In this document: positions 11,742-26,453 of the stretch, in pieces | Layout of the letters: each line of letters starts with the position of its first letter | How positions within the stretch are numbered: the stretch's first letter is position 1 | IMG/VR virus record: IMGVR_UViG_3300031992_000025 | Span: 33,932-97,931 of that record | DNA length: 64,000 nucleotides | Source of the DNA: a virus | Lineage: Duplodnaviria > Heunggongvirae > Uroviricota > Caudoviricetes | Strand: one strand, 5' to 3' | Made by a program: the position numbers and the translations under genes | The notes under the pieces: generated by a model | Told to the model about the DNA's origin: nothing | Database searches by the model: none | What the model saw: the letters and a program-made list of their open reading frames with translations, nothing else

Positions 11742-11744
11742 ATA

Positions 11745-11833: not shown

Positions 11834-11840
11834 ACTATCT

Positions 11841-11915
11841 TGAGATGTCGACAAGCGGTAAGTCATCTGGCTCTGAACCAGATATTCCTTGGTTCGAATC
11901 CAAGCATCTCAGCCA
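11841..11915 (+). tRNA. tRNA-Gln(CTG)
   Basis: anticodon stem TCTGG/CCAGA loop CTCTGAA, CCA encoded. Confidence 0.75.
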
Positions 11916-11917
11916 GT

Positions 11918-11982
11918 AGAGCCTATACTTATTTCTGTCTAGAGACAATTGCCTGCAACGCGATCATTATAGTTAGGCCAAT
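11918..11982 (+). repeat. bipartite bulged-helix motif copy 3 (AGAGCCTATACTTATTTCT ... AGTTAGGCCAA)
   Basis: GCCTA-T-AC pairs GT-TAGGC; 34-nt insert; immediately after tRNA-Gln CCA. Confidence 0.7.
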
Positions 11983-11986
11983 AAAT

Positions 11987-12060
11987 AGGAGTTTGGTATA
12001 GTGGCCGTGCCTTGGTCTCCAAAACCAATGAGGTGAGTTCGATTCTTACAACTCCTGCCA
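11987..12060 (+). tRNA. tRNA-Trp(CCA)
   Basis: anticodon stem TTGGT/ACCAA loop CTCCAAA. Confidence 0.75.
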
Positions 12061-12065
12061 AATAT

Positions 12066-12154
12066 AGAAGGTTGGGAGAGCTGGTCTATTCCGCTTGTCT
12101 AGAAAACAAGAATGTCGCAAGGCATCATCCGTTCGAATCGGATACCTTCTGCCA
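12066..12154 (+). tRNA. tRNA-Ser(AGA), type II, A34
   Basis: anticodon stem CTTGT/ACAAG loop CTAGAAA, long variable arm; anticodon assignment tentative. Confidence 0.5.
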
Positions 12155-12158
12155 GAAT

Positions 12159-12246
12159 GGAGAGTTGGCCGAGTGGTCGAAGGCGTCTGTCTTGAAAACA
12201 GAAGTGGGGCAACCCACCTGGGGTTCGAATCCCTAACTCTCCGCCA
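12159..12246 (+). tRNA. tRNA-Ser(TGA)
   Basis: anticodon stem TCTGT/ACAGA loop CTTGAAA, long variable arm. Confidence 0.8.
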
Positions 12247-12291
12247 TAAAAACTGTTTACAACTCAGTATAAATGTTGTATAATATAAAAT

Positions 12292-12366
12292 GCGGGTATA
12301 GACAAGTGGTTAAGTCATGCGCCTTTCACGCGTATATCGCCGGTTCGAATCCGACTACCCGTACCA
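12292..12366 (+). tRNA. tRNA-Glu(TTC)
   Basis: anticodon loop CTTTCAC, preceded by promoter TTGTATAATATAAAAT. Confidence 0.7.
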
Positions 12367-12477
12367 AATTAATTTAATATTAGTACCTACTTGCTTAATG
12401 CTAGCAACAAGCAGACAAAAAAGAATGCCAGGTGAAACCGCTTTTACAGGTTTAGGTTGGGAGTAGCCACTTATTAT

Positions 12478-12552
12478 GGGTCATTAGCTCAATGGTAGAG
12501 CGGCCGGCTGTTAACCGGTTGACGACTGTTCGATTTCAGTCATGGCCCGCCA
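12478..12552 (+). tRNA. tRNA-Asn(GTT)
   Basis: anticodon stem GCCGG/CCGGT loop CTGTTAA. Confidence 0.75.
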
Positions 12553-12556
12553 TACA

Positions 12557-12660
12557 TGCGGTTGTTCGAAATTGGTATACGGTAATAGTTAAGCTATTAC
12601 AAGGCACTGGCAAGCATGCTGAAGTCATGTGTTTAGAGGTTCAAGTCCTCTCATCCGCAA
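12557..12660 (+). ncRNA. atypical long tRNA-like element (about 104 nt)
   Basis: T-arm AGAGG-TTCAAGT-CCTCT, acceptor-like GCGGTTG/CATCCGC, extra hairpin GTAATAG-TTAAG-CTATTAC. Confidence 0.3.
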
Positions 12661-12665
12661 CAAAT

Positions 12666-12760
12666 ATGCCCTTGGTCGTCTAATATGGTTAAGACGCGGC
12701 GTTATAAAGATAGAAGTGTACAGCTATCAAGTTGAGATGTGGTTACAATCCACTAAGGGG
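12666..12760 (+). ncRNA. atypical long tRNA-like element (about 95 nt)
   Basis: closing helix GCCCTT/AAGGGGC, T-arm GTGG-TTACAAT-CCAC, no clean anticodon arm. Confidence 0.3.
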
Positions 12761-12770
12761 CAGCTAAAAT

Positions 12771-12845
12771 GGATCGCTCGTATATCAGCTAGTATACTTG
12801 GCTGTCTACCATGGGAGGAGGGTTCGATTCCCTCGCGGTCCGCCA
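12771..12845 (+). tRNA. tRNA-Asp(GTC)
   Basis: anticodon loop CTGTCTA (one stem mismatch), acceptor GGATCGC/GCGGTCC. Confidence 0.55.
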
Positions 12846-12847
12846 AA

Positions 12848-12931
12848 AGAGCCTATACTTATTTCTTAATGGTTTTTGAAGGTTCGATTCCTTCATTACC
12901 CGCTTTGGGTGATGATATTAGTTAGGCCAAA
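12848..12931 (+). repeat. bipartite bulged-helix motif copy 4 enclosing a permuted tRNA minihelix
   Basis: AGAGCCTATACTTATTTCT + T-arm GAAGG-TTCGATT-CCTTC + acceptor 3' ATTACCC-G + CTTT + complementary 5' strand GGGTGAT + AGTTAGGCCAA. Confidence 0.65.
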
Positions 12932-12982
12932 GTTTATTTAGAAAGGAGAAAGCTTATGTAATTGTTAAAGGAGGACATAACG

Positions 12983-13234
12983 ATGAGTTATAGTCGAAAA
13001 CAATTTGATAAGCAAAAGCTAAAAAAGCTTGCAAAAAATAGCTGTAATGGCTGGAAAGGTGGCGCATATTATAGTCGCTATTTAGGCCATTATGTTCGTT
13101 GGTGGAAAAGTAAAGGTAGGAATAGTAGATATGCTTACTATAAAAAATTCTATCGCAAACGAATGAGAAGATTTGCAAACAAAAATGGTTGGTATTCTAA
13201 AAAAGAGTTCGATTTAATTTGGACTTGTTGGTAA
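12983..13234 (+). CDS. small basic Arg/Lys/Tyr/Trp-rich protein
   Basis: RBS AAAGGAGGACATAACG-ATG; 83 aa, highly basic. Confidence 0.4.
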   Translation: MSYSRKQFDKQKLKKLAKNSCNGWKGGAYYSRYLGHYVRWWKSKGRNSRYAYYKKFYRKRMRRFANKNGWYSKKEFDLIWTCW

Positions 13235-13239
13235 AATTA

Positions 13240-13253
13240 TTGTATAATATAAT
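13240..13253 (+). promoter_or_regulatory. extended -10 promoter TTGTATAATATAAT
   Basis: drives ncRNA candidate plus tRNA-Met cluster. Confidence 0.55.
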
Positions 13254-13254
13254 A

Positions 13255-13537
13255 GAGCTTACTTAACTGTTGGCTTAGAAGCAGCCATCATATAATGAGT
13301 GACCAACAGAACGTAAGGTGGTGCATCACTGAAATGAAGCGTCCCTAAATTACTGGATGAGAAATGGGACGTAAAACTGTCGGGAGTCAATAAAAATCTA
13401 TAATTTGGTAAGGGTGGTCAGAGTACCATTCTTAACTAAGAGCGTGCTGTAGGCACAGTAAATGCAGTATAATCAATGTTATAGAGTGCCCTAAGAGTCT
13501 TTGGCGTAGTAGCACATAAGTAAGTTCTTTATAACAT
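13255..13537 (+). ncRNA. candidate structured ncRNA (about 280 nt) transcribed from TTGTATAATATAAT promoter
   Basis: ORF-free, GC-richer than surroundings, directly upstream of tRNA-Met. Confidence 0.35.
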
Positions 13538-13613
13538 TGCGGGGTGCTAGCAGCGGTAGCTAACTGGGCTCATAACCCAGAGGTCGTAGGTTCGATTCCT
13601 ACCCCCGCGACCA
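13538..13613 (+). tRNA. tRNA-Met(CAT), initiator-like
   Basis: anticodon stem CTGGG/CCCAG (three G-C pairs next to loop) loop CTCATAA. Confidence 0.7.
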
Positions 13614-13617
13614 ATAT

Positions 13618-13732
13618 TGCATGATAGTCGAGTGGAAGAGACGACCGCATACATAAGCGGTGGACACAGCTGAAAGTAAATTCTAGATAGGAGTAAGCTA
13701 GAGCGGAGGTTCGATTCCTTCTCATGCGACCA
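13618..13732 (+). ncRNA. atypical 115-nt tRNA-like with 8-nt anticodon-type loop and about 45-nt extra arm
   Basis: acceptor TGCATGA/TCATGCG-A-CCA, T-arm GGAGG-TTCGATT-CCTTC, stem ACCGC/GCGGT with loop ATACATAA. Confidence 0.35.
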
Positions 13733-13734
13733 GA

Positions 13735-14010
13735 GGCAGGTTTTCATCGATTTTAGAGCCTCGCACATAAGAAAATCGATAGATAGACGGACTATGTACA
13801 AGATATGTCTAATCTAAAAAAGGAAAGGTTGTACACCAGAAATTTGGTCGGCTAGTTGGCGTAAACCTAGCAATAGGAGCGTTTGCAACAGACCCTCAAT
13901 AACTGCAGTGAGAGGGCAAGCACGAGCTTACAAGAAGAGACTGCGACGGATGAAATATTCCTAGAGCTCTTGAGCTGAGAGCACAAGGTTCACTGGGCAA
14001 AGAACAAAAC
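13735..14010 (+). ncRNA. candidate structured ncRNA (about 275 nt)
   Basis: ORF-free, 9-bp hairpin ATCGATTTT/AAAATCGAT with loop AGAGCCTCGCACATAAG. Confidence 0.3.
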
Positions 14011-14012
14011 AC

Positions 14013-14089
14013 GGACCGTTGGTGTAGTGGCCTTGCATGCTTCTCTGTCACGGAAGAGATCACGAGTTCGAATCTCGTACGGTCCGCCA
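14013..14089 (+). tRNA. tRNA-Asp(GTC)
   Basis: anticodon stem CTTCT/GGAAG loop CTGTCAC, acceptor GGACCGT/ACGGTCC. Confidence 0.75.
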
Positions 14090-14094
14090 TAGTT

Positions 14095-14202
14095 AGAGCC
14101 AATACTTATTTCTTAGCGAGGTAGCTCAGAGGTTAGAGCAGCAGATATTAATCTGAAGGTCGTAGGTTCAAGTCCTTCCCTTGCCAGGCCTAGTTTGGCC
14201 GA
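14095..14202 (+). repeat. bipartite bulged-helix motif copy 5 enclosing an anticodon-less tRNA-like unit
   Basis: AGAGCCAATACTTATTTCT ... GTTTGGCC (GCCAA/TTGGC covariation); insert 14115-14186 has acceptor, D-arm, T-arm and hairpin CAGAT-ATTA-ATCTG instead of anticodon loop. Confidence 0.65.
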
Positions 14203-14205
14203 TCT

Positions 14206-14282
14206 GGCTGGGTGGCCAAGCTGGTTAAGGCACAAAGCTCATACCTTTGGGATCGTCAGTTCAAATCTGACCCCAGCTACCA
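14206..14282 (+). tRNA. tRNA-Met/Ile2(CAT), elongator-type
   Basis: anticodon stem CAAAG/CTTTG loop CTCATAC. Confidence 0.7.
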
Positions 14283-14285
14283 TTT

Positions 14286-14363
14286 AGAGCTTATACTTAT
14301 TTCTTGAATGCTGTGGTTCGAATCCACCTTGCCTGTGGGGAGCGGAAAGTAGTTAAGCCAAAT
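14286..14363 (+). repeat. bipartite bulged-helix motif copy 6 enclosing tRNA 3'-fragment
   Basis: AGAGCTTATACTTATTTCT ... AGTTAAGCCAAAT (GCTTA/TAAGC covariation); insert has T-arm GTGG-TTCGAAT-CCAC. Confidence 0.65.
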
Positions 14364-14365
14364 AC

Positions 14366-14441
14366 GCACTCTTAACTCAACTGGGAGAGTGCTACCCTTA
14401 CAAGGTAGAAGTTGTAGGTCCGAGTCCTACAGAGTGCACCA
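14366..14441 (+). tRNA. tRNA-Val(TAC)
   Basis: anticodon stem CTACC/GGTAG loop CTTACAA. Confidence 0.8.
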
Positions 14442-14581
14442 TGGCATGTATGCAATTAGAAAACGCAACCTGCCGGTAAAGTAGGCGCTCCGAGTAGTCT
14501 CGAAGTAGGAGCTTTGTGGAATATTGCTAAATCGAGACTTTAGTAACAATATTCTAGGTGTAATTCCCACCATGCCAACCA
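14442..14581 (+). ncRNA. 140-nt tRNA-like RNA (acceptor TGGCATG/CATGCCA-A-CCA) with large internal insertion
   Basis: 7-bp terminal helix plus ACCA; T-loop-like GGTG-TAATTCC-CACC. Confidence 0.3.
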
Positions 14582-14585
14582 ATTT

Positions 14586-14660
14586 GCAGACGTAGGACAA
14601 TGGTTAGTCCATCGCCTTGCCAAGGCGAATATACGGGTTCGATTCCCGCCGTCTGCTCCA
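14586..14660 (+). tRNA. tRNA-Gly(GCC)
   Basis: anticodon stem TCGCC/GGCGA loop TTGCCAA. Confidence 0.7.
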
Positions 14661-14731
14661 CCAGGACAGATAAAGATTAGTTTCTTTATTAGGTTCTAAG
14701 GCTGGACAAATCGATAAAACCAGCCAGTTAT

Positions 14732-14806
14732 GCGGGTGTCGTCCAACGGTCAGGGCCTCTGCCTTCCAAGCAGAAGATACCGGTTCGATTCCGGCCACCC
14801 GCTCCA
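14732..14806 (+). tRNA. tRNA-Gly(TCC)
   Basis: anticodon stem TCTGC/GCAGA loop CTTCCAA. Confidence 0.75.
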
Positions 14807-14834
14807 TTAGCAGTATTTAAAAGGAGAAAAAACA

Positions 14835-14930
14835 ATGAAAACAATGAAACTCAGTCGTCTAAGTTGTCGAAGCTGTAAAGCTTGTTTTCGTTGTCTCAGT
14901 ATAAATACCGCGTTAGCTCAGCTGGATTAG
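14835..14930 (+). CDS. Cys-rich micro-ORF (31 aa, C-x2-C-x2-C-x2-C) reading into tRNA-Arg
   Basis: strong RBS AAAAGGAGAAAAAACA-ATG. Confidence 0.25.
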   Translation: MKTMKLSRLSCRSCKACFRCLSINTALAQLD

Positions 14931-14984
14931 AGCATTTGGCTACGAACCAAAAGGTCGAGGGTCCGAATCCTTCACGCGGTGCCA
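14907..14984 (+). tRNA. tRNA-Arg(ACG)
   Basis: anticodon stem TTTGG/CCAAA loop CTACGAA. Confidence 0.75.
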
Positions 14985-14985
14985 A

Positions 14986-15060
14986 GCTTTGGTAGCCAAG
15001 TGGTTAAGGCTTCGGTCTGCAACACCGACATCGTGGGTTCGAATCCCACCCAAAGCTCCA
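14986..15060 (+). tRNA. tRNA-Cys(GCA)
   Basis: anticodon stem TCGGT/ACCGA loop CTGCAAC. Confidence 0.8.
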
Positions 15061-15095
15061 AAATCTAGCTTTTTATGTTGTATAATATAATAGTT

Positions 15096-15173
15096 CCTCC
15101 CGTAGCTTAGTCAGGTTAAAGCGAACGCCTTATAAGCGTTAGATCGGTGGTTCAAATCCACCCAGGAGGACCA
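15096..15173 (+). tRNA. tRNA-Ile(TAT)
   Basis: anticodon stem AACGC/GCGTT loop CTTATAA; preceded by promoter TTGTATAATATAAT. Confidence 0.6.
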
Positions 15174-15248
15174 TCAAGCTAGTTATTTGCCTGTCAGAAG
15201 CCCTGTTAGAGGAAGCTGGGCTTATAATTAGCTTATTTTAATAAAGAG

Positions 15249-15845
15249 GTGCTTATGGAAATTAGATTTGTTGATGAAAGCAAAGAAGCCACTGGTAAAG
15301 TAAAAGAGGCACAAGAAGCATTAGATGAGCTCATTGATAAAAAGTCTGGTGAAGCTAAGGAAAATCCAGATTATTTAGCATTAATGGCAAAATATAAAAA
15401 AAGCTTAACTAATATTAATAAAGATGCTTGCGGCAGTCCTTGGGAATGGAGTTGGGGCTTAGACTATTTTGTTGAATTTCTTCGTTTTATGCAAGAATAT
15501 TATAAATTAGGCATTAATGTTTGGGCAATGGAGAGACGAGATGAAGATCCTAAAAAATATAAAAATTATCCAACTAGATATGAGAGTATTTCTAAAGCTC
15601 TTAGCTACTATGATAAGTGGCAAAATTTAGAAGAAGAATATATTACAGTAATTGATCACCCAGAGACACGAAAAACACATGAAAATGATGATGGAACAAT
15701 TACTGTTGATGATCTTGGCTTTCATTGTGAATATAAATTTGGTTCTGCTAAGAAAACATATAGAAAACTTCATAAGGATCAAAAGAAATATAAAAAGTTA
15801 TTTTTTAAAACTGTAATGAACTATTTAGAAGAATGGTGGGATTAA
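15249..15845 (+). CDS. hypothetical protein
   Basis: RBS AAAGAGGTGCTT-ATG. Confidence 0.5.
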   Translation: MLMEIRFVDESKEATGKVKEAQEALDELIDKKSGEAKENPDYLALMAKYKKSLTNINKDACGSPWEWSWGLDYFVEFLRFMQEYYKLGINVWAMERRDEDPKKYKNYPTRYESISKALSYYDKWQNLEEEYITVIDHPETRKTHENDDGTITVDDLGFHCEYKFGSAKKTYRKLHKDQKKYKKLFFKTVMNYLEEWWD

Positions 15846-15883
15846 TTAAGTCTCATTGAAAATCTCACTGAAGAAAACTTGCT

Positions 15884-15971
15884 GGAGGCATGGAGTAATG
15901 GTATCTCATCACCCTGCTAAGGTGACCATCGGGCAACTGATGTCCGCGTTCGAGTCGCGGTGCCTCCGCCA
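15884..15971 (+). tRNA. tRNA-Ser(GCT)
   Basis: anticodon stem TCACC/GGTGA loop CTGCTAA, long variable arm. Confidence 0.8.
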
Positions 15972-15973
15972 TA

Positions 15974-16306
15974 TTGAAAGGAAATTTTATGAAAGCATAT
16001 TTTATAGCAACTGCAAATGATTGTAAAAAAGATGAGCTTGGTTGGTTAGACTGGGGTAAATCTTTACGTGTTGTTGGTTTCTTTGAAGACATGGAAACTG
16101 CAAAAAAAGCAGTAGAAGAAAATTGGGGAGATATATATGAAGATGGTTATTATAAATATGCTATTATAGAAGAAAGAGAAGATGGTCTATATTCTCATTG
16201 TGAAAGCCCATTATTCTATAAGTGGGAAGGCACAATAAAAGATGGTGGCTATAAACAAATAGAAAGGCCAGAAGCTACAAAAGGCTTTTGTAATTTCACA
16301 ATCTAG
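15974..16306 (+). CDS. hypothetical protein
   Basis: RBS GAAAGGAAATTTT-ATG. Confidence 0.5.
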   Translation: MKGNFMKAYFIATANDCKKDELGWLDWGKSLRVVGFFEDMETAKKAVEENWGDIYEDGYYKYAIIEEREDGLYSHCESPLFYKWEGTIKDGGYKQIERPEATKGFCNFTI

Positions 16307-16308
16307 TT

Positions 16309-16392
16309 GCCCAGATGGTGGAATGGTAGACACCCGTGGCTTAGAACCACGTGCCGAAAGGCGTGCAGGTTCAAATCCTGTTCTGGGCACCA
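16309..16392 (+). tRNA. tRNA-Leu(TAG)
   Basis: anticodon stem CGTGG/CCACG loop CTTAGAA, long variable arm. Confidence 0.8.
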
Positions 16393-16399
16393 TTATTCT

Positions 16400-16485
16400 G
16401 CGCGAGTGATGAAATGGTAGACATGTGAGTCTAAGAAGCTCATGCCAGCAATGGTGTGTGGGTTCAAGTCCCACCTTGCGCACCA
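16400..16485 (+). tRNA. tRNA-Leu(AAG), type II, A34
   Basis: anticodon stem TGAGT/GCTCA loop CTAAGAA, long variable arm; anticodon assignment tentative. Confidence 0.5.
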
Positions 16486-16528
16486 TATTTATTTAAATTA
16501 AATTGTATAATATATAGAGGATTATTAT

Positions 16529-16858
16529 ATGTATACTTTACAAGAATTAATTGAAAAAGGCTATATTGATAGCATTAAAACTGATGGGACTCATCTTGGT
16601 GATGGTTATACCATTGTTGTAAAATTAAGTAGATATTCTATTGGCAGAATTACTATTGATGTTGGTATTGATGAATATTTAGATGATGCAGTTAGACTTA
16701 TTAATGGTATTATCAATATTCAAGAAGAATTAAATAAGGAAGCTACATCAAAAGAAAGTCCAATAGTTAGAAAAGCACCTGCAGAAGAATTAAAAGAAGT
16801 ACTTACTGGAACAGAAATTAAAGAAACAAAAATTAGCCCAGAGGATTATGCTGAATAA
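16529..16858 (+). CDS. hypothetical protein
   Basis: RBS AGAGGATTATTAT-ATG after promoter TTGTATAATATAT. Confidence 0.5.
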   Translation: MYTLQELIEKGYIDSIKTDGTHLGDGYTIVVKLSRYSIGRITIDVGIDEYLDDAVRLINGIINIQEELNKEATSKESPIVRKAPAEELKEVLTGTEIKETKISPEDYAE

Positions 16859-17031
16859 TGAAACATATAATTAAAGATGGTATTTATTATTTATATTCAG
16901 ATACTGATGCTGAACTAATGTCAATTACACTTACCAGTGAACCAGAAAATCAAGTTATTATAAAAACAGAGAATGAAGTTTATGCTGGTCCCGTAAAATT
17001 TATTAAATTTTCTGAAGATATAACGACAAAA
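16858..17031 (+). CDS. small hypothetical protein (57 aa)
   Basis: ATG overlapping previous stop (TAATGA). Confidence 0.35.
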
Positions 17032-17039
17032 TAAGCCGT

Positions 17040-17345
17040 ATATTATATACAGGGGTGTAAGTTATGTAGTAGACCCGCGGTCTTCAACCTCGAAAGTTGC
17101 TATGAATGACTACGAAACTGGTGCCTTATATTGGAAACATTATAAGTGCAGGTGATGATATCGGTGAACCCTGTCAAATGGGAATACCGAGGGAACGAAA
17201 GGCCCGTAGAGAGTAGATAATCACCCAGCTAAACAGAAATGTATGCTGAAGATGTACTCCAGACCACAAACAGAAATGGTGGTGAAAACCATAGTGGTAA
17301 GCAAAACCGGGAAACTAGGTGCAAGCCCTAGCACCCCTGCCAATA
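17040..17345 (+). ncRNA. candidate structured ncRNA (about 300 nt)
   Basis: ORF-free, GC-richer; contains ACAGAAATGG...AAAACCGGGAAACTAGG segments; 3' end ...GCACCCCTGCCAA. Confidence 0.35.
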
Positions 17346-17355
17346 TTATTATTTT

Positions 17356-17574
17356 ATGGAAGAATCTTATAGTTTATTATTAGAAATGACTATTGTTGGA
17401 ATAATGTGTGGACTTGTAGTAGCATTCTGCATATTCTTCTGTATAAAATATCATAAAGATAAAAGTTATGAAAAAGCCAGAGCAATTATCTTAGGTGGAA
17501 CTATTGGATTATCTCTACTAACTACAATATTTGAGATAGTTTGGTTCTGTATGTATCTTGGCTTACCAGTTTAG
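17356..17574 (+). CDS. small membrane protein
   Basis: two predicted TM helices. Confidence 0.4.
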   Translation: MEESYSLLLEMTIVGIMCGLVVAFCIFFCIKYHKDKSYEKARAIILGGTIGLSLLTTIFEIVWFCMYLGLPV

Positions 17575-17724
17575 GAGAGAATTATGTTAGCTATTGAACT
17601 ATTTGCAATATATGGAATTGGATTAGGAATTTTAAACCTACTTACTCTTGGATTAATACTATTCCATAAAATTAAAAAAGATTAATATTAGCATATAATT
17701 ATTTGCTAAATTAAAATGAGTTTT

Positions 17725-17797
17725 GAGCCGCCTCGCTCAGAAAACGCCCCCTCTGATCAAGGAAATAGATCAGGTTAAAGGTGGCGGCCTTTTTTAT
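17725..17797 (+). promoter_or_regulatory. long-range hairpin plus U-tract (terminator or regulatory RNA) upstream of secreted-protein operon
   Basis: GAGCCGCC ... GGCGGCC-TTTTTTAT with internal hairpin CTGATC..GATCAG. Confidence 0.35.
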
Positions 17798-17835
17798 AAA
17801 GCCACTATGAATTTTATTGAAGGAGACTTAGAAAA

Positions 17836-18450
17836 ATGAAATTAAGAAACAAAATTGCTGCTATTACAGCAGCCGCCATGTTAGCATTCACAGGTGTTGG
17901 TTTTGCTGCATGGACATTTACACAAGAAAGAGCAGCTGAAGTTGCAGTTACTGATAGAGTTTCAGTAGGCATTGAATTAAATGATAACTTTAAACTTTAC
18001 AATGCTGATGACGATGCTGAGATTTCTAACCTTTATATTATTTGTGATGCACCAGCTTCAGAAAGCGGTATTCTCGCTGGCGAAGGAGTTTACTGGGCAA
18101 GTGATGCTGCAGGTGCAACAAAAGTAGATGATGTTTATCTTAAAGGTACTCTTAAAAAAGTTGAAGAAGACAATATTTTAGATAAAGCTTCTGTTACAGT
18201 TACATTTGGTGCAACACATTCAATGACATCTACATATATTACAATTGGTGCTTTTACAGCCCCAGCCAATGTTGATGTTACAGTTGCCAATAATGCAGAT
18301 GTTCAAAGTGCTGACTTTAATTTACCAACATTAGCATATGTTGCAGCTAAAATTCCACATTCTGTTGATGAATTAACTGCTATGAATACAGCTCTTGCAA
18401 CTGAATTATCTGGTGCAAAAGTTAGTTTTACTGCTCAAATTATTGCTTAG
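17836..18450 (+). CDS. secreted protein with SipW-cognate (TasA/camelysin-class) signal peptide
   Basis: MKLRNKIAAITAAAMLAFTGVGFAAWTFTQ: hydrophobic core followed by G-x-G-F-A-A-W-T-F motif; directly upstream of SipW-like peptidase. Confidence 0.5.
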   Translation: MKLRNKIAAITAAAMLAFTGVGFAAWTFTQERAAEVAVTDRVSVGIELNDNFKLYNADDDAEISNLYIICDAPASESGILAGEGVYWASDAAGATKVDDVYLKGTLKKVEEDNILDKASVTVTFGATHSMTSTYITIGAFTAPANVDVTVANNADVQSADFNLPTLAYVAAKIPHSVDELTAMNTALATELSGAKVSFTAQIIA

Positions 18451-18463
18451 TTAGGAGATTAAT

Positions 18464-19399
18464 ATGACATCAATTACGATTATAACAATAGTCGTAGTTG
18501 CACTCTTAACTGTTATAATCTTTGGTTTAGCTTGGTTAGGCTGGAGCTCTTGTATAAAGAGCTATAAAATGGAAGTCAGTCAAGGTAAATATGATGATGC
18601 TATTTTAAAAGAATATCATTCAAAGAAAAGTAAGTCAGGGCTAGTGGGAATTATATGTTCTTACCTAGCCCTCACTATTCTTGCTGGACTATTCATTACA
18701 GGAGTAGTCTACAAGGCACGAGGCGAAAACTTAGCAATCGGCAATCAAACAGCTCTTGTTATAAAAACAGGCTCGATGTCCGATTATTATGATAAAGACT
18801 TAGCTGATAAACATCCAGAATATAAAATATCACAGTTTGATATTGGAGATATTTGTATTTTTGAAACAAATTTTAATGACTTAGTTGAGGGTGAAGTCTA
18901 CGGCTATAAATATAAAGATATTATAATTACTCATAGATTGTGGAAATATAATCGAGAAACAGGTTGCTGTGAATTTAGAGGCGATAATAATTTTTATCCA
19001 GAAAATATTTCTGATGTAGCATATTATGGCACAGTCTATAGAGAAGATATTGTATATCATTATACAGGCAAAAAAATCCCATGTATTGGTGCATTTATTT
19101 TATATGCACAATCTATTTTTGGAATTTGGTCATTAGCCGGAATTATTGGTGTCGCAGTTAGTTCTGAAATTGTTTATTATCAAATAAATAAAATAAATAA
19201 GGCGAGAGATAACATAATCTATAAGCCAGAAGAAAAACCTATAGAAGAAGTAGAACAAGAGGAAAAACCAAAGAAAAAGCTTAAAGCAAAATTTAAGCGT
19301 AGAGATGGAACTCTTGTAGAAATATATGCTAAGGAACCAACAGCTGAGGCTCCTTCAAAGACTCACGAAGAAAAGGAGGGCGCTGAAGATGAGAAGTAA
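18464..19399 (+). CDS. sipW: ER/archaeal-type signal peptidase I (SipW/Sec11-like, S26B) with C-terminal Lys/Glu-rich extension
   Basis: N-terminal TM; VIKTGSMSDYY (Ser box), IITHRLW (HR box), RGDNNFYPENISD (GDNN box). Confidence 0.7.
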   Translation: MTSITIITIVVVALLTVIIFGLAWLGWSSCIKSYKMEVSQGKYDDAILKEYHSKKSKSGLVGIICSYLALTILAGLFITGVVYKARGENLAIGNQTALVIKTGSMSDYYDKDLADKHPEYKISQFDIGDICIFETNFNDLVEGEVYGYKYKDIIITHRLWKYNRETGCCEFRGDNNFYPENISDVAYYGTVYREDIVYHYTGKKIPCIGAFILYAQSIFGIWSLAGIIGVAVSSEIVYYQINKINKARDNIIYKPEEKPIEEVEQEEKPKKKLKAKFKRRDGTLVEIYAKEPTAEAPSKTHEEKEGAEDEK

Positions 19400-20327
19400 G
19401 TTATTGATTCCTATAATTACTCTTTTTGTTGGCGCTCTTCTTTTTGGGACTACTTATTCTGCTTGGGTATTCAATAATTCTAATAACGCAAATAATACTG
19501 TTCAGGTTGAAGTTCCAACTTGGACATTTGGTGATCAAGGCTTTGCTAAAATTGAGAATATTTCTGGTTTAAGCTATTTAACTGCTGAAAAAGAAGAAAC
19601 TATTACTCAAGGCAGTTCTGAGGCAGTTAGATTCACAAATACTGGTGGAACTCATGCAAGAGACCATATCTTCTATGTTGATTTAGATCAAGATTATAAC
19701 TTATATGATATAGCTACTTGCAAAATTGAATTTGATTATTATCATACTTATAAAAGGGAACAAAATACAAAAGGTTTTCCAAAACTTCAATTATTCCGTG
19801 ATGACATAGGCAGAGGAGCTGCCCAAGGTGGCGATGACACAATAACTGAAATTGCACCTTATGTTGTTACTAATATTGATGAAGACTGGTGGCATTTAGA
19901 ATATTATATTACTTCTATGTGTCCAACAGTTGCCGACCATCAAGATAAGCCACAATCAAATTATCAGATAAATAGAATTAAATTTACAGATAGAGGCATT
20001 TATGACTATGCTGATGTAACTGGCTGGTTCGTTATGGACAACTTAATGCTTACAAATGAACCAGGTGCTAGATTAGGTCTATTCAATAGAACTGCTGGTG
20101 ATACAGTTGGAAAATTCTTCTGGTTTAAAGTCGCTTGGTCAGGTGATTTACATTCTTGCATTCTTACAACAAGTGATACAAGTTTGGCTGTTTGGGATGA
20201 TGAATCTACAAAGAGTCCATTCTATGTTAAGCTTCTTGCGAGAGGACAAGTCACTATTACAGCAACTCTTGAAATTGGAAGTAATCACGAAATATTTACA
20301 ATTTCTAATACAATTACAATAAGTTAA
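19388..20327 (+). CDS. secreted protein with SipW-cognate signal peptide (second candidate substrate)
   Basis: MRSKLLIPIITLFVGALLFGTTYSAWVFNN: same G-T-T-Y-S-A-W-V-F motif; start overlaps sipW stop. Confidence 0.5.
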
Positions 20328-20477
20328 TCGTATAATATAATGTAACTGCCACACATTGCCGCCGTGGTCGGAAAAGAGAATTGATCATCTCTAAGTACTG
20401 GATAAGGGCGGGTCTAGCCAAACGGTGCACAAAATTCTGGAAATACAAAAGGCGATCCATAAAGCAACAGTTACAAT

Positions 20478-20503
20478 AAAAGAGCTTAAATAAGCTCTTT
20501 TTT
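20478..20503 (+). terminator. rho-independent terminator
   Basis: AAAAGAGCTTAAATAAGCTCTTTTTT. Confidence 0.6.
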
Positions 20504-20534
20504 AATTGTATAATATAAATGAGGTTTATTTTAT

Positions 20535-20807
20535 ATGAAAAAGAAAGACATTATTGATTTAATTACAGCTCATTATGAAGATGACCCAAGATTGTTTTTC
20601 CATAAAACTATTGAGGTTTTAAAGGAATTTCAAGAAAATGGTGATGATGCCTTAATTCAACATTTAGACTTCATTCTTAAGAGTAAAGTTAAAATTGCCC
20701 CTAAGAGAGAGGTTAGAAAATTAGAAGATTTGCACGAAGAAATTTCTTTCGACGAAGCCAAGAAGCTTGGTTGGATATTTGTTCCACAGGAGAGTAATAA
20801 TGAGTAA
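20535..20807 (+). CDS. hypothetical protein
   Basis: RBS AATGAGGTTTATTTTAT-ATG after promoter. Confidence 0.45.
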   Translation: MKKKDIIDLITAHYEDDPRLFFHKTIEVLKEFQENGDDALIQHLDFILKSKVKIAPKREVRKLEDLHEEISFDEAKKLGWIFVPQESNNE

Positions 20808-21105
20808 AAATTATTCACCAGAAATTATTAAAAGATTTCTTGAAGATGATAAGCCAAGTATTTTTGTTTTAAAAGATGATAGTGTTTATATCGGGATATT
20901 AAGGCCTGGATATGGTCGTGGGCATGTTCATTGTGTAGCACCTACTATCAATGATGGCGGCATGGGTTTTCCAAGAAGTTATATTAAACAAATTATTTTA
21001 TTTAATGGTTTAATTTACCCCAAAGAAGAAAATGGTCCGCACAAAATATTAAATATTTTAGAGCTAAATGAATTAGTAAATAAAGCCGGCTATGAGTTTA
21101 TTTAA
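20800..21105 (+). CDS. hypothetical protein
   Basis: ATG overlapping previous gene end. Confidence 0.45.
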   Translation: MSKNYSPEIIKRFLEDDKPSIFVLKDDSVYIGILRPGYGRGHVHCVAPTINDGGMGFPRSYIKQIILFNGLIYPKEENGPHKILNILELNELVNKAGYEFI

Positions 21106-21179
21106 AAATTTTTAAAATTTCTCAAAAAATATTCGCTAAAATAATACACAGCAAAAAAATTAAAAATTTGCTGTATAAT

Positions 21180-24130
21180 ATATAGTTAGTTACAGAGTAA
21201 TCTGTTTCTATAAGAGCTTAAAAAGCACCTGCACTATTAGGAACTCCCGAAAAGCCGAAAGTGAGGCTGTCGAAAGGCTAAGCGACTATAAATAAAATTT
21301 ACGTTAACATTAAGACCCGAAGAGTACTCACATCGACGGGCACTGCCGAAAGGCACTTAAAGGTGGGTTGGGGTTAAAGTTGTCTACCAATGTGAGAAAA
21401 ACAACTGCTTCCTTGGCTAATTTAGTCCGGTAGGAAGTTAATATAGTTTAGGTGGCCCAGGAGGTATTTAATTTCCCTCTCCCCAGAAAACTTGAGGTCA
21501 CCAGCCTATAATCAGGTATAGCTATGGCGCCTGGAATACTATCATTCTCGATAGTATAGTTTAAGAGGCTGCGTAATGCCGCCAACCCGTTGAGGTTATC
21601 TCTGGCGGGTTATGTAGAGCCGGAGTATTTACCGACTGGACCTGAGCAAATTGTCCACCTACTTAATTAAACTGCTCATTTTTCTTAAAAATCGATCGCA
21701 CTTCAGGGCACTTCCGCCTGTCCTAAGCATGACGTTAAACTGCAAATAATTTTTAGGAGGCGCTTATGAAGTATTACGTATTAGATGGCGAAATTAATAC
21801 TCGCCCTATTAAGGAAAAAATGTTCCGTTCAAGAGCTGCCGCTGAAAAAGCATTAGAAGTTATTCTCTATAGAGAGGACCTTCAAGTTCAAGACGACAGA
21901 TTTCCTTCAAAGCACACCGAAGAATTCGTGTGTGACAGATGCTCTAGATTCTTCATTCGTAGAATTGTCTACGGTGAGTAGAGCCTAGGTCAAGACACAA
22001 ACTAATTGGCCCAGTAATGGGAAAATGGAAAATCCGAAATCGTGGATTATACAGAGACTAGCGATCAAAGTTAGTTAGAAAGTCTTGATTTCTTAGTTAG
22101 TTACACGTTCGCGTGTTTCTATAAAACTTCCTGAAAATCTTTGGATAAAAACCAAAGCGAATGACTGCACAAGTTGTATTGAGTGCTTTCACGAGAAAAG
22201 GTACACTGGGATGCATGGGAAGTAAAATGTGATGCACCAGTAATTGTCGGTGGCGATATAAAACCGTTCAGCAGAGATACAACTCTTGACTGATAAAGGC
22301 CTTGTTGATGGGTGAGGTTAGTTACCTCTTCAGGTAGAAATGAATCAACTAATCTGCTCTCTTGCCGACTATTTTGGGTTAGACAGGCAAGTATAACAAA
22401 AGTTATAGTCTTAGCCCATGAGTTTATTAATTACATAGTAATATGTGATTATATATGAACGGCGCTTGCTTAGGCCTTAACAACTTAAGCTGGTGAGCAT
22501 TCAAGACAACTACGTTAAGTGAGTATTCTGAGGCATAATGAAATCTCACATATTCAGCGCTGATTGCCGACAAGTCATATGACTGGACATGAGCTTGTCC
22601 TTGAAAAGGCACAACGGGGTTTGGTGAGATGTCCACAACCAGTTATTAAAATCACTTGGGCAAAAATAAGCATAAGCCCATTAACAACGAGGGCACGTTG
22701 TAAAATAACGAGTTTAGCCGAGTCTTATAGACGGTATGGAGTCTGATATAAACCCATGCAACCCACATTCTTTATAGGAGGTATGGAACGCTAGAATAAA
22801 TACTTTGGGATCTAGCAATCTGGCCGACCTAATGGGTAGTTCAAGGTGTAACTCCTTGATTGGTCTCAAAAAGCCCACGTAGCAGTAACCAGGGCTAATA
22901 CTAAGACGTCAAAACGTGAAAGAGCCTGCTACACTGACATAGGATTCATTCCGAGTTGTGACCGCTTGAAAGCTGGCGGGAATGCACTGTGATGCACGTC
23001 AAAAATTCTCACAGACCTGCACAAGGCTAAGTGCTAAAAAATGTCCAGGCTTTTAGAAGGAAAACTATAAACCTCCAGGTGGCTCCTGGGTAAACTGTAA
23101 GAAACAAGCTGCCTTTAAACAGTATAAAGATTAGGGGTGCAGAACTATCGCTGAAGTTAGCCTGTAGGCAAAGCGTCAATATGATGTGTCAAAGTTGGTT
23201 GGTAAGAGCCTAATTCCGTTAATCGCAAGGAATGACTGCAATAATATACTTTGGTTTGGAATGACACAGTAATGAACCTAAAAACCCAACATGACAGTGC
23301 ATTATTTAATCGGATTTTGTCACCATGTAAATAATAATGCTTCGGGAAAGTGAACGAACTAGGAGCCCCCTCGCGCATTAAGTTGTATGCCAACGGCTGA
23401 GCATTAGAAATAATGTGAGGTGCATATTATTGCCGAGCATAGAGGAGATTGCCGATACCTCGACCAGGATATGGAAAGCAAAGTAGGGATGTGGATGTTC
23501 ACCAAGAAACTCTTTTAGATAAAATCGTGATTGTGGGTTTGGAGTTTCAAAGGTAATTATGCCTAATTAAGTAGATTAAAGAGTTTGGTCTCTGGGACGG
23601 CCATAGTGCTTAATTGAAAATAATAAATAGTTCCACCACCCAGTACTGAATGTTGTTTGATTAATTGTGATTGCCGCTGGACATGACGAAGGAGAGACAG
23701 CAATTAATTAAGTAAGTGGACTATCTCAGCCTATTAAACGCTAGTTTAGTTTAAAGCTATTAATTAATAGGTAATTAACAGAACTTAGTATTCTGTATAA
23801 AGAGATTAAAGCCGGGGAACTCCAGGACAGGTTTTATGAGTATCTTGCTAAGAAGAGAAAATAATGTAAAAAGGCCTGAGTAAGTTTAATCACCTGCAAT
23901 TTGGGGTTGAGCCCAGTTAGAAAACGTTAGTCAAAGTTAACGCTCTAACAATGCTTATTAATTTATTTGCCTGAGGCTATCTCACGCAGATTAATAAGAA
24001 GAGCCCAAGAAAATAGGGACCGAAAGGAAAAATATCCAACTTTGAACTCTTTTATATAAGAATAGTCTTAGCTAGTGAGTAGAGGGCTAAGATGAGGCAA
24101 AGCATGCGTGTGATAAGCCATTAAACTCTA
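21180..24130 (+). ncRNA. roughly 3-kb ORF-free, GC-enriched block: candidate giant structured ncRNA(s)
   Basis: promoter TGCTGTATAATATAT at 21170; stops in all six frames throughout; GC clearly above the about 30% genome background; only one short ORF (21766-21981) with RBS; ends at terminator near 24160. Confidence 0.45.
21766..21981 (+). CDS. small ORF (71 aa) embedded in the noncoding block
   Basis: RBS AGGAGGCGCTT-ATG; CDRCSRFF motif. Confidence 0.3.
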   Translation: MKYYVLDGEINTRPIKEKMFRSRAAAEKALEVILYREDLQVQDDRFPSKHTEEFVCDRCSRFFIRRIVYGE

Positions 24131-24157
24131 TTTTTTTATTTACTAGTAAAAATTTTA

Positions 24158-24188
24158 AAGGCCTATTTATATAGGTCTTTTTATTTTA
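24158..24188 (+). terminator. rho-independent terminator
   Basis: AAAGGCCTATTTATATAGGTCTTTTTATTTT. Confidence 0.55.
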
Positions 24189-24209
24189 TTTATTGTATAA
24201 TATTATAAT

Positions 24210-24395
24210 ATGGTTTTCAATTATAGAGTTATTTGGACAGATATAAATAAAAATAGGCAGGATTTTGTAGATATGGATTCACAAAATATTGCACTTTTTA
24301 TAGCAAAACAAAAAGTGAGACAAGGTATGCAAAATGTTATTATTCAACTTACACTAGTTGGAGACTATGATAAGCAAGAGGAGATAGAAGTATAA
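24210..24395 (+). CDS. hypothetical protein
   Basis: follows promoter TTGTATAATATTATAAT. Confidence 0.4.
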   Translation: MVFNYRVIWTDINKNRQDFVDMDSQNIALFIAKQKVRQGMQNVIIQLTLVGDYDKQEEIEV

Positions 24396-24396
24396 T

Positions 24397-24708
24397 ATGA
24401 AATTTATTAAAAAACCAATTCCAATTGATGCAGTTAAATGCATTAAAGAAAATGAAGATGAAATTATTAGTCTTTTAGAGTCAGGAACTACAGAATGGGA
24501 AAAAGTATTAGATGATGATTATAATGTTATTGGATTTAATATTCATTCTTGGGAAGGTGTAGATCCAGTCTATTATGATTTTAGTAAAAATAAAAATAGT
24601 GGCGGAAAAGCTTACTGGGTTATTAAAGGGTTAAAAGGTGAGTGCTACCCTTGTGTAGCAGATGATGCTGAAGATGCTCCTCTTGGGTACGAGCTCTTTA
24701 AAGAATAA
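24397..24708 (+). CDS. hypothetical protein
   Basis: translationally coupled (TAATATG). Confidence 0.4.
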   Translation: MKFIKKPIPIDAVKCIKENEDEIISLLESGTTEWEKVLDDDYNVIGFNIHSWEGVDPVYYDFSKNKNSGGKAYWVIKGLKGECYPCVADDAEDAPLGYELFKE

Positions 24709-25072: not shown

Positions 25073-25150
25073 GGGGGCGCATGTTCTAAGGGCAAGCGAG
25101 ACTGCTTTGCAAGCAGACTGTTGTGGGTTCGATTCCCTTCGTTTCCACCA
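25073..25150 (+). tRNA. tRNA-Ala(TGC)-like
   Basis: acceptor GGGGGCG/CGTTTCC with G3-U70 wobble, anticodon loop TTTGCAA, enlarged D region. Confidence 0.5.
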
Positions 25151-25203
25151 ATATGTAATAATATTTGCAGCGCAAGTTGTGTCCCAAATATTTGCTAAAT
25201 TAA

Positions 25204-25217
25204 TTGTATAATATAAT
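25204..25217 (+). promoter_or_regulatory. extended -10 promoter TTGTATAATATAAT
   Basis: upstream of HNH endonuclease gene. Confidence 0.55.
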
Positions 25218-25229
25218 GAGGCATTTATT

Positions 25230-25835
25230 ATGAGAAAAACAATTGATGATATTAAAAAACAAATTTGGGAGAATTCATTGCATACCTGTGAATATTTAAG
25301 TGGTGAAGCAAAACCAGGTAAAAAAATTCATGTAAGATGCATAATTCATAATGAAGAGTTTGATGTAAGTTATGATACTATTCGTAAATCTACTAGAAAA
25401 CATCATATTTGTCCTAAATGTAAAGCTGAAGATGATGCAAAAGATAAGGTAAAACTTATTTGCGATTATTGTGGTAAAGAGTATTATGTTGCAAAAAGTA
25501 AGTCTACTAAATCAGATTATCATTTCTGTTGTAGAGCTTGTAAAGATTCTGCACAAAAGATTAATTCTGGAGAAAAATTTAATGAATTAAGACCAGATCA
25601 TTATGGAACTGGAACAACAACTTACAGAGATGCAGCATTTATAGCTTATCCACATAAATGTGCAATTTGTGGTTGGGCTGAGGATGAAGATGTGCTTGAA
25701 GTTCATCATATTGATGAAAATAGAGCAAATGCAAGTTTAGACAATTTAATTATATTATGTCCAACTTGTCATAGAAAATTATCTATTCATAAATATTATC
25801 TTACTGATGATAGAAAAAGCATTATTAAAAAATAA
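25230..25835 (+). CDS. HNH homing endonuclease with Cys-rich zinc-binding N-terminal region
   Basis: EVHHIDENRANASLDNLIILCPTCH (HNH motif); multiple CxxC pairs. Confidence 0.65.
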   Translation: MRKTIDDIKKQIWENSLHTCEYLSGEAKPGKKIHVRCIIHNEEFDVSYDTIRKSTRKHHICPKCKAEDDAKDKVKLICDYCGKEYYVAKSKSTKSDYHFCCRACKDSAQKINSGEKFNELRPDHYGTGTTTYRDAAFIAYPHKCAICGWAEDEDVLEVHHIDENRANASLDNLIILCPTCHRKLSIHKYYLTDDRKSIIKK

Positions 25836-25846
25836 TGTAAATTTAT

Positions 25847-25923
25847 GGGCTATTAGTTCAGTCTAGGAGAACGCCCGCCCTGCAAGCGGGAGGTCATCGG
25901 AGCGGAGCCGATATGGTCCACCA
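25847..25923 (+). tRNA. tRNA-Ala(TGC)-like with atypical T-loop
   Basis: acceptor GGGCTAT/ATGGTCC incl. G3-U70, anticodon stem CCCGC/GCGGG loop CCTGCAA, T-loop AGCGGAG. Confidence 0.4.
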
Positions 25924-25927
25924 AATT

Positions 25928-26001
25928 GCCCCTGTAGTACAATGGTAGTACAGTTGACTTGTAATCATCCGATGGCCGTTCGATTCGACCCTGGGGCACC
26001 A
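25928..26001 (+). tRNA. tRNA-Thr(TGT)
   Basis: acceptor GCCCCTG/CTGGGGC, anticodon loop CTTGTAA. Confidence 0.7.
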
Positions 26002-26005
26002 AAAT

Positions 26006-26081
26006 GGGGCTGTAGCTCAATTGGGAGAGCGCCGCGTTAGCATCGCGGAGGTTGCGGGATCGTTCCCCGTTAGTTCCACCA
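26006..26081 (+). tRNA. tRNA-Ala(AGC), A34
   Basis: anticodon stem CCGCG/CGCGG loop TTAGCAT; acceptor GGGGCTG/TAGTTCC with G3-U70. Confidence 0.5.
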
Positions 26082-26166
26082 ATTCATGCCATGGAAGGAA
26101 AACCATATAAACCCTTACAGCTTCGTTAATATCAGACGTAGGTATTAAAGAGTTAAGCTGAATTAT

Positions 26167-26243
26167 CCGGAGTTAGTTCAGCTTGGTAGAACACCTGATT
26201 TGGGATCAGGGGGTCGTGGGTTCGAATCCCGCATTCCGGACCA
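26167..26243 (+). tRNA. tRNA-Pro(TGG)
   Basis: anticodon stem CCTGA/TCAGG loop TTTGGGA, acceptor CCGGAGT/ATTCCGG. Confidence 0.75.
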
Positions 26244-26247
26244 TTAT

Positions 26248-26370
26248 AGAACCTGTGCTTATTTCTAATAGGGCAAGCAGGTTGTCGCTGGTTCGAATCC
26301 AGCCTTCTCCACCATTAATTGGGGAAGTAGCTCAGTTGGTAGAGCACCCGCAAAATATTAGCCAGGTCAT
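26248..26370 (+). repeat. bipartite bulged-helix motif copy 8 enclosing permuted tRNA halves (3' half, linker, 5' half)
   Basis: AGAACCTGTGCTTATTTCT + T-arm GCTGG-TTCGAAT-CCAGC + CTTCTCC-A-CCA (ends 26314) + TTAATT + GGGGAAG-TA-GCTC-AGTTGGTA-GAGC-A-CCCGC (26321-26351) + partner GCCAGGT (26361-26367); acceptor strands GGGGAAG/CTTCTCC fully complementary (G3-U70). Confidence 0.65.
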
Positions 26371-26373
26371 ATT

Positions 26374-26449: not shown

Positions 26450-26453
26450 TTAT

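Follow-up and report, generated by a model that had tools for sequence, protein, structure and literature searches.

What use could a phage make of a signal peptidase of its own, and why might its gene lie between the genes of two exported proteins? This question is raised by a three-gene module (P1, peptidase, and P3) in the IMG/VR virus record IMGVR_UViG_3300031992_000025. A 64-kb stretch of this record (positions 33,932 to 97,931), referred to below as the window, was analysed; the phage genome as a whole comprises ~146 kb, and all coordinates are window positions. The biofilm fibre system of Bacillus is the main known example of a SipW-type peptidase dedicated to cognate substrates, and a literature phrase search found no paper on a phage, prophage, or viral signal peptidase. 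With a probability of roughly 0.6, the module is a dedicated export and processing operon for surface binding proteins that is carried by a TGA-recoded, tRNA-rich phage. It follows the logic of the Bacillus system but uses another signal motif and unrelated, unannotated cargo. For P1 and P3, Pfam, NCBIfam, and PHROGs gave no family above the noise level, and only the SipW/archaeal models of NCBIfam pick up the peptidase, at scores below their cut-offs.

A Divergent Signal Peptidase in the Middle of the Module

The product of the middle gene is a divergent endoplasmic reticulum (ER)/archaeal-type (SipW-like, S26B) signal peptidase I with an added transmembrane (TM) helix. In NCBIfam, it matched TIGR02228 with an E value of 4e-7 (30 bits; cut-off 51.85) and the SipW model NF046067 with an E value of 2e-6 (27.5 bits; cut-off 190). 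A database search gave 320 peptidase homologues, of which 120 were listed and 40 were aligned, and both models were matched by all 40 (best E 1.8e-15). The homologue from a bacterial contig described below (locus L009) reached 53.3 bits, which exceeds the cut-off of TIGR02228. Its residues 62–251 align to positions 2–172 of the 189 positions of the SipW model, and several homologues span nearly the whole of this model from TM2 onward. Homology to the S26B peptidases is established, though the window protein scores below the curated equivalog thresholds. Neither Pfam nor PHROGs gave a significant match to the window peptidase, and none of the 120 listed homologues (of 320) carries a precomputed Pfam domain. 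A single-sequence search of the Protein Data Bank (PDB) with the peptidase gave noise only, and the sole match of the family profile there was the human SEC11C (7p2q; E 0.068), over the HR and GDNN boxes.

The residues S104-M105, H157-R158, G173-D174-N175-N176, and D184 are invariant in the 40-sequence alignment. In keeping with the established knowledge of S26B enzymes, we take them to be the Ser, His, and Asp boxes of SipW/Sec11. The Ser, HR, and GDNN boxes had already been read from the DNA in a first-pass annotation, and they hold across the 40 aligned sequences, the catalytic Ser and His included. An extra N-terminal hydrophobic helix (MTSITIITIVVVALLTVIIFGLAWLG) is nearly invariant and is followed by a Lys-rich loop, and the two further hydrophobic segments (Table 1) fall inside the SipW-aligned region. 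Compared with SipW, the protein has an insertion of ~20 residues after the Ser box and a charged, variable C-terminal tail. The hydrophobic segments and the positive-inside rule together suggest that the catalytic domain lies outside the cell. A cleavable signal at TM1 was considered and rejected, as the Lys-rich loop would then be outside and the catalytic domain inside.

A Signal Peptide Shared by the Flanking Proteins

P1 starts with MKLRNKIAAITAAAMLAFTGVGFA↓AWTF and P3 with MRSKLLIPIITLFVGALLFGTTYS↓AWVF, where the arrow marks the predicted cleavage site. The motif common to both is G-x-[GT]-[FY]-[AS]↓A-W-x-F, and a six-frame scan of the window under genetic codes 11 and 4 found it only in these two proteins. 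It is conserved across 120 homologues of P1 and 121 homologues of P3, so that the shared and unusual signal noted in the first-pass annotation is a property of both families. In a 28-sequence alignment of P1, G20, G22, A24, and W26 are invariant; among the 120 homologues, W26 is still invariant, and G20, G22, F23, A24, and A25 are at least 90% conserved. The mean column entropy is 0.51 bit over the first 28 residues of P1 versus 1.60 bit over the mature part. Ordinary signal peptides show the opposite pattern.

Among 1.84 billion cluster representatives, a profile search returned just 89 P1-family clusters. The remote members retain ...LVGTG[FY]A↓AW.[FY] or GSGFS↓AWLF (e.g., VGTGYA↓AWQF), and positions -1 and -3 stay small residues even there. 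The small residues at -3 and -1 are in line with type I cleavage behind residue 24, and cleavage is predicted at [AS]24↓A25. In the P3 homologues, the motif is followed ~20 residues on by a second conserved element, (V/I)P-x-W-x-F.

The first-pass annotation had placed these signals in the SipW-cognate class of TasA. The model of this class, TIGR04088, was not matched even at E ≤ 10. Its consensus across the cleavage site is G-G-T-x-A↓x-F-x-D; both motifs have aromatic residues at -2 and +2 and a small residue at -1, and the Asp at +4 is absent here. As far as the motif goes, the likeness to the TasA signal class is positional and not one of membership, and the signals of P1 and P3 form a distinct, related-looking class. 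Since no reported model matched it, G-x-[GT]-[FY]-[AS]↓A-W-x-F could define a new class of signal peptide. A SipW-type peptidase adjoins both genes with the A-W motif in the window and in all eight related loci that were compared.

Conserved Gene Order and Exchangeable Cargo

The eight related loci are independent of each other and comprise three IMG/VR viral contigs (67–232 kb) and five contigs binned in metagenome-assembled genomes (MAGs) of Firmicutes. The order of P1, peptidase, and P3-type gene is kept in 8/8 of them. As the first-pass annotation had proposed, the three genes make up a compact operon arranged like tapA-sipW-tasA. In L009, a 205-kb contig from a Christensenellales MAG (JBGUQC010000002.1), they lie at 4409–6777 and adjoin rplK and rplA, with rubrerythrin/flavin-reductase and alpha/beta-hydrolase genes nearby. 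In another locus (L007), the module occupies 4333–6694, with a PAP2 gene on one side and an ABC-transporter gene on the other. Because the same three genes sit in a bacterial chromosomal context, the module is not phage-specific. The first-pass view of a phage-borne module is right about the replicon, which is a phage (see below), and is to be qualified by the rplK-rplA neighbourhood of the same genes in the Christensenellales MAG. The module is common to gut or rumen Firmicutes and to a phage lineage, its copies being distributed over uncultured gut Firmicutes and a lineage of large recoded phages. A megablast search with 15000–24000 and a tblastn search with the peptidase found no match in 50,697 phage records.

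The cargo itself can vary. In locus L004, the third gene (6689–7408) still has the signal peptide, AWTF, and the second element as WVF, and in its mature part a BspA-type leucine-rich repeat (LRR) domain (PF13306, E 8e-5) replaces the domains found in the window P3. A remote member of the P1 family (P0435) has a P1-like domain fused to an LRR-like C-terminal tail. A constant N-terminal part for export and linkage with an exchangeable head is what would be expected for adhesin-like cargo.

The Mature Proteins

The AlphaFold2 model of P1 has a predicted local distance difference test (pLDDT) score of 91.4 and shows a beta-sandwich plus a single helix close to the C-terminal end. Mature P1 models as a small immunoglobulin (Ig)/cohesin-like beta-sandwich without a close structural match; among the viral structures of BFVD, Foldseek found no match to P1 at E ≤ 0.001. 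One of the 28 P1 homologues matched the cohesin-like domain Zona_CL2 in Pfam (E 1.2e-5).

P3 consists of a disordered linker, a carbohydrate-binding module (CBM)-like jelly roll at residues ~50–250, and a Big_2-like Ig domain at the C-terminus (residues ~254–312). The monomer model leaves residues 20–48 disordered, and the second W-x-F falls within them (Table 1). The predicted core has a CBM-type beta-sandwich fold, which suggests that P3 is a protein of the glycan-binding type. No named CBM family in Pfam was matched by P3 or its 31 homologues. Neither P1 nor P3 of the window gave anything significant in Pfam or PHROGs, and no NCBIfam family was reported for them.

Proposed Function and Alternative Explanations

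If the module is a dedicated export operon, its SipW/Sec11-type (S26B) peptidase would be active, with the catalytic domain outside the cell. P1 and P3 would enter the Sec pathway via their family-specific signal peptide, and the peptidase, apparently dedicated to these two proteins, would cleave at the predicted site and give both mature proteins an A-W-x-F N-terminus. P3 would carry its CBM-like jelly roll and Ig-like domain, of the glycan-binding type, on a flexible N-terminal linker, and P1 would be its small conserved beta-sandwich partner. Both would be displayed on the infected Gram-positive cell, where they might serve in adhesion or aggregation, mask receptors, or exclude superinfecting phages; the signal peptides of P1 and P3 argue against a role in the virion. 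By analogy with the donor-strand exchange of TapA and TasA, assembly of P1 and P3 through their mature N-terminal strands is plausible.

Several points weigh against this explanation. The window peptidase scores below the curated cut-offs of both TIGR02228 and the SipW model NF046067. TIGR04088 and TIGR04089 were unmatched by P1 and P3 (E ≤ 1) and by 10 N-termini of the families (E ≤ 10). P1 is modelled as a complete domain, which leaves any donor-strand groove hypothetical. In view of the bacterial chromosomal copies, the phage copy could be a passively carried acquisition.

A more specific version of the dedicated export operon is a module that works like TapA/TasA without being homologous to it. 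Mature P1 would polymerize or dock P3 via the A-W-x-F strand, which would give a short fibre or stalk with an exchangeable adhesin head (CBM/Ig or LRR). There is a precedent in B. subtilis, where the donor strand of TasA consists of residues 28–38, the mature N-terminus, and where TapA, whose N-terminus resembles that of TasA, is proposed to nucleate the fibres (PMC9674648). Such an assembly would agree with the modular heads, with the disordered stretch of P3 that contains a second conserved W-x-F, and with the Trp at +2 and the aromatic residue at +4, which are conserved in both proteins beyond the normal needs of signal peptidase recognition. However, the conserved +2 and +4 residues could be just recognition determinants of this peptidase, the confidently predicted fold of P1 is a closed domain, and the similarities to pilins are at the noise level for beta-sandwiches. 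The assembly is therefore put forward tentatively. A wider proposal, which is somewhat more doubtful, is that of a previously unrecognized Gram-positive surface-assembly system that is convergent with, and not homologous to, TapA/TasA. In such a system, the peptidase would expose the A-W-x-F strands, P1 and an exchangeable P3 (CBM/Ig or LRR head) would assemble, and the phage would have captured the set to re-dress the cell, for glycan or cell adhesion or for receptor masking.

The remaining alternatives depart from the dedicated export operon altogether. The extreme conservation of the whole P1 N-terminus (n- and h-regions) and of the peptidase TM1 would also fit TM–TM contacts, in which case the signals would be uncleaved anchors and the SipW-like protein would act through helix–helix contacts of TM1 as a membrane scaffold or partner and not as a protease. 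This is improbable, since the catalytic Ser, His, and Asp do not vary among members from phages and cells and since small residues are conserved at -1 and -3, as expected for a cleavage site. Plasmid-borne general signal peptidases exist in Bacillus, and the scores of the window peptidase below the family cut-offs mean that its specificity is not fixed by family. It might then be a general secretion booster that supplements the host signal peptidases, with ordinary Sec substrates as chance neighbours. Chance is hard to reconcile with a gene order kept in all eight loci, in phage and bacterial contexts alike, with a special motif confined in the window to the two neighbours, and with the conserved overlap of the peptidase and P3 genes, and this alternative is very unlikely. 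Hardly any credence is left for a true TasA/TapA/camelysin-type fibre operon, in which P1 and P3 would be divergent jelly-roll subunits of the TasA family. The order substrate-sipW-substrate, the conserved mature N-termini, and the aromatic-Ala↓x-aromatic pattern around the predicted cleavage site (compare GTWA↓AF of TasA) would all agree with it. However, Pfam Peptidase_M73 was matched by neither P1 and P3 nor their 28 and 31 homologues (E ≤ 0.5), the P1 and P3 profiles did not match TasA in the PDB at E ≤ 10 and found no sequence relative there, and no TIGR04088 match was reported. Without a Pfam match or a PDB sequence relative, homology to TasA/camelysin is unsupported, and the predicted structures of P1 and P3 do not show a TasA-like jelly roll either. 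The kinship with TasA, TapA, and camelysin that the first-pass annotation had suggested was rejected on sequence and fold evidence; as a claim of homology, the fibre operon is largely refuted already.

Organization and Control Elements of the Operon

All three open reading frames (ORFs) of the first-pass annotation are present on the plus strand (Table 1), and one boundary has moved by a single base, as P3 starts at 19389 and not at 19388. A longer ORF is available in the P3 frame from 19326; the start at 19389 is preferred because GGAGG, a Shine–Dalgarno sequence, precedes this ATG and the homologues use the same start. An AGGAG-type ribosome-binding site precedes each of the three genes. P1 and the peptidase gene are separated by 13 nt, and the peptidase and P3 genes overlap by 11 nt of dual-coding DNA (19389–19399, ATGAGAAGTAA). 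The peptidase end -E-K-stop is conserved because it overlaps the conserved start of P3, M-K/R-x-K, on the same DNA, and this shared conservation implies a conserved translational coupling.

A leader is located between the promoter motif and the ribosome-binding site of P1. The promoter-like motif upstream of its T-tract is also given as TGCTAAATTA. The first-pass annotation had described a structured hairpin and U-tract here. Both are present at ~17721–17795, and the structure is not a strong one: the fold of -26 kcal/mol (z -1.9) was equalled by 7 of 200 shuffles and is only modestly better than shuffled sequence. An Rfam search of the leader region gave no credible match. In loci L003 and L005, a hairpin and T-tract occur at the same place with a different sequence. 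Expression of the operon may be gated here by attenuation, or the leader may be just the terminator of the upstream genes. Just upstream of the promoter-like motif, there are two tiny hydrophobic ORFs, 17356–17574 (72 amino acids (aa), two TM segments) and 17584–17685 (33 aa).

The motif [TCA]GCTAAATTA[ATC]N recurs in the window, with 17 intergenic copies on the plus strand that mostly lie 25–60 nt before a Shine–Dalgarno sequence and ATG. Allowing two mismatches, it was counted 55 times versus 33.8 ± 5.8 in shuffles. A tract of at least five T follows only 2 of the 17 copies. This recurrent intergenic motif is a candidate phage-specific promoter. It was also observed that the motif often stands directly after a terminator hairpin and that a related motif lies upstream of the P1 homologues in L003 and L004.

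Table 1. Location of the module, its parts, and other features of the window (aa, amino acids; +, plus strand).
Feature	Position	Strand	Remarks
P1	17836–18450	+	204 aa; stop TAG
P1 signal peptide	17836–17907 (aa 1–24)	+	predicted cleavage after A24
P1 motif GVGFA↓AWTF	17893–17919 (G20–F28)	+	
Peptidase	18464–19399	+	311 aa; stop TAA
Peptidase catalytic boxes	18773–18775 (S104, GSM); 18932–18934 (H157, THR); 18980–18991 (GDNN, aa 173–176)	+	
Peptidase layout	extra TM aa ~4–27; TM2 aa ~60–83; C-terminal TM aa ~208–238		Lys-rich loop after the extra TM; catalytic domain after TM2; charged tail after the C-terminal TM
P3	19389–20327	+	312 aa; stop TAA
P3 signal peptide	aa 1–24	+	motif GTTYS↓AWVF at 19446–19472
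P3 second W-x-F	19521–19529 (W45–F47)		
Promoter-like region	17672–17715	+	sigma70-like TTAAAA-16-TATAAT (17672–17699), then TGCTAAATTAAA (17704–17715); consensus scan
Leader hairpins	17721–17742; 17746–17785	+	then T6 tract 17790–17795; candidate attenuator or terminator
Terminator-like hairpin AAAAGAGCTTAAATAAGCTCTTTT	20478–20501	+	T-rich tail to 20509; probable operon 3' end
Recurrent motif [TCA]GCTAAATTA[ATC]N, examples	1415; 4687; 7800; 17704; 24772; 25193; 27285; 28409; 38863; 44695; 54615; 60417	+	
tRNA gene blocks	10158–16485; 25073–28281		
RNA-repair and tRNA-maintenance genes	2121–4406; 32851–33789; 35826–36752; 7886–8797		
2457-aa ORF	45111–52484		code 4; 11 in-frame TGA
Further code-4 (TGA-recoded) regions	40092–43811; 54675–57848; 57960–60359; 61181–62311; 27296–28123; 7886–8797		

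The Phage, Its Genetic Code, and Its Host

The window contains 38 tRNA genes in two blocks that flank the module region, and nearly all of its genes are on one strand. The RNA-repair and tRNA-maintenance genes comprise a Pnkp/RNA-ligase fusion (phrog_8238, E 1.6e-199), a tRNA-His guanylyltransferase-like (Thg1-like) gene (phrog_4717, E 6e-84), a NinI-like phosphatase, and a PhoH-like protein that is readable only with code 4. When five large code-4 ORFs of the window were searched against PHROGs, none received a structural annotation, and only the PhoH-like protein was recognized. With its 38 tRNAs, the Pnkp/RNA ligase, the Thg1-like protein, PhoH, TGA recoding, and relatives in IMG/VR, the replicon is a phage. 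One of the tRNA genes, at 14114–14187, has an odd anticodon loop of 6 nt (ARAGORN 'tt'; Rfam tRNA 49 bits).

The phage reads TGA as Trp. ORFs of 100 aa or more cover 0.72 of the sequence under code 4, up from 0.61, and the region of the 2457-aa protein becomes a single ORF (Table 1). In L003 and L005, TGA replaces conserved Trp codons in all three genes, and in P1 it is the Trp of the motif that is affected. Annotation leaves related loci fragmented unless code 4 is used. The module in the window has 14 TGG, no TGA, and TAG/TAA stops and is therefore readable under either code; many other genes are also free of TGA. None of the 38 tRNAs of the window has the anticodon UCA. The 2457-aa ORF is a giant conserved phage protein that is split by TGA under code 11. 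Fragments of it from 47463–51095 match separate parts of the 2494-position PHROG 14959, to which no function is assigned there, and the same stretch has weak matches to hypothetical proteins of Bacteroides phages and of a human-faecal phage (34.6% identity over 459 aa). Elsewhere in the window, the ORFs in a region of ~2.4 kb (21981–24397) do not exceed ~170 codons on either of the two strands, whichever single stop codon is reassigned. The GC content of this region, 0.38–0.47, is above that of the surroundings, Rfam found nothing there, and only one stable local fold was seen near 21900–22100 (z -5.3).

The host is probably a gut Firmicute rather than a member of the Bacteroidota. A Firmicute is favoured because the Shine–Dalgarno sequences are strong, the cellular copies of the module are in Firmicutes MAGs, and the RNA ligase is closest to those of Firmicutes phages. 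A Bacteroidota host, as for crAss-like phages, was considered on account of weak matches of 48828–51095 to Bacteroides phages and was judged unlikely for the same reasons, the Shine–Dalgarno sequences being of the AGGAG type. A bacterial host that itself uses code 4 was also rejected: the in-frame TGA of the L007 peptidase is a real stop (the code-11 ORF ends at 5723, overlapping the start of the next gene at 5720), and the neighbouring housekeeping genes of L007 have no in-frame TGA.

Comparison with Known Systems

The module resembles B. subtilis tapA-sipW-tasA and B. cereus sipW-tasA-calY in having an ER/archaeal-type peptidase between or beside two exported proteins. With the Bacillus tapA-sipW-tasA operon, it also shares the compact arrangement, a signal motif with an aromatic residue at -2, Ala or Ser at -1, and an aromatic residue at +2, and two substrates with similar mature N-termini, which in TasA and TapA are donor strands (PMC9674648). 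In contrast to TasA, TapA, and camelysin, P1 and P3 are unrelated in sequence and predicted fold. Unlike Bacillus SipW, the peptidase has an extra N-terminal TM helix, a cytosolic loop, and a long charged tail, and this copy of the operon is borne by a phage. The signal motif is G-x-[GT]-[FY]-[AS]↓A-W-x-F and not G-G-T-x-A↓x-F-x-D.

The human SEC11C (7p2q), a Sec11-type S26B peptidase, has the same SM, HR, and GDNN..D boxes. The similarity to it is very weak (E 0.068), the phage enzyme is without the partner subunits of the signal peptidase complex (SPC), and an insertion of ~20 residues separates its Ser box from the conserved block that follows. The alternate-type signal peptides of actinobacteria (TIGR04089) have a ...G-T-x-A-x-W-[TS]-D motif with the Trp just past the predicted cleavage site, and an archaeal-type signal peptidase is their neighbour. 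They differ in hosts and mature domains, and 10 N-termini of the present families did not match this model at E ≤ 10.

As a replicon, the phage can be likened to the large TGA-recoded gut phages of the Jade- and Agate-type clades (Borges et al., bioRxiv 10.1101/2021.08.26.457843). The contigs are of ~130–240 kb and come from gut or rumen samples, and some gene blocks have in-frame TGA at Trp while others keep the standard code. The 64-kb window differs in that it has no tRNA(UCA).

Exported phage proteins that work at the surface of the infected cell are not without example. Llp of T5 and Ltp of TP-J34 are phage-encoded, have signal peptides, and act there in superinfection exclusion or receptor masking. 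To our knowledge, proteins of this type are lipoproteins processed by host enzymes, and none brings a signal peptidase of its own. The phage described here is a tangible example of one that encodes a signal peptidase along with proteins that are probably the substrates of this enzyme, and this combination points to a deliberate remodelling of the infected-cell surface.

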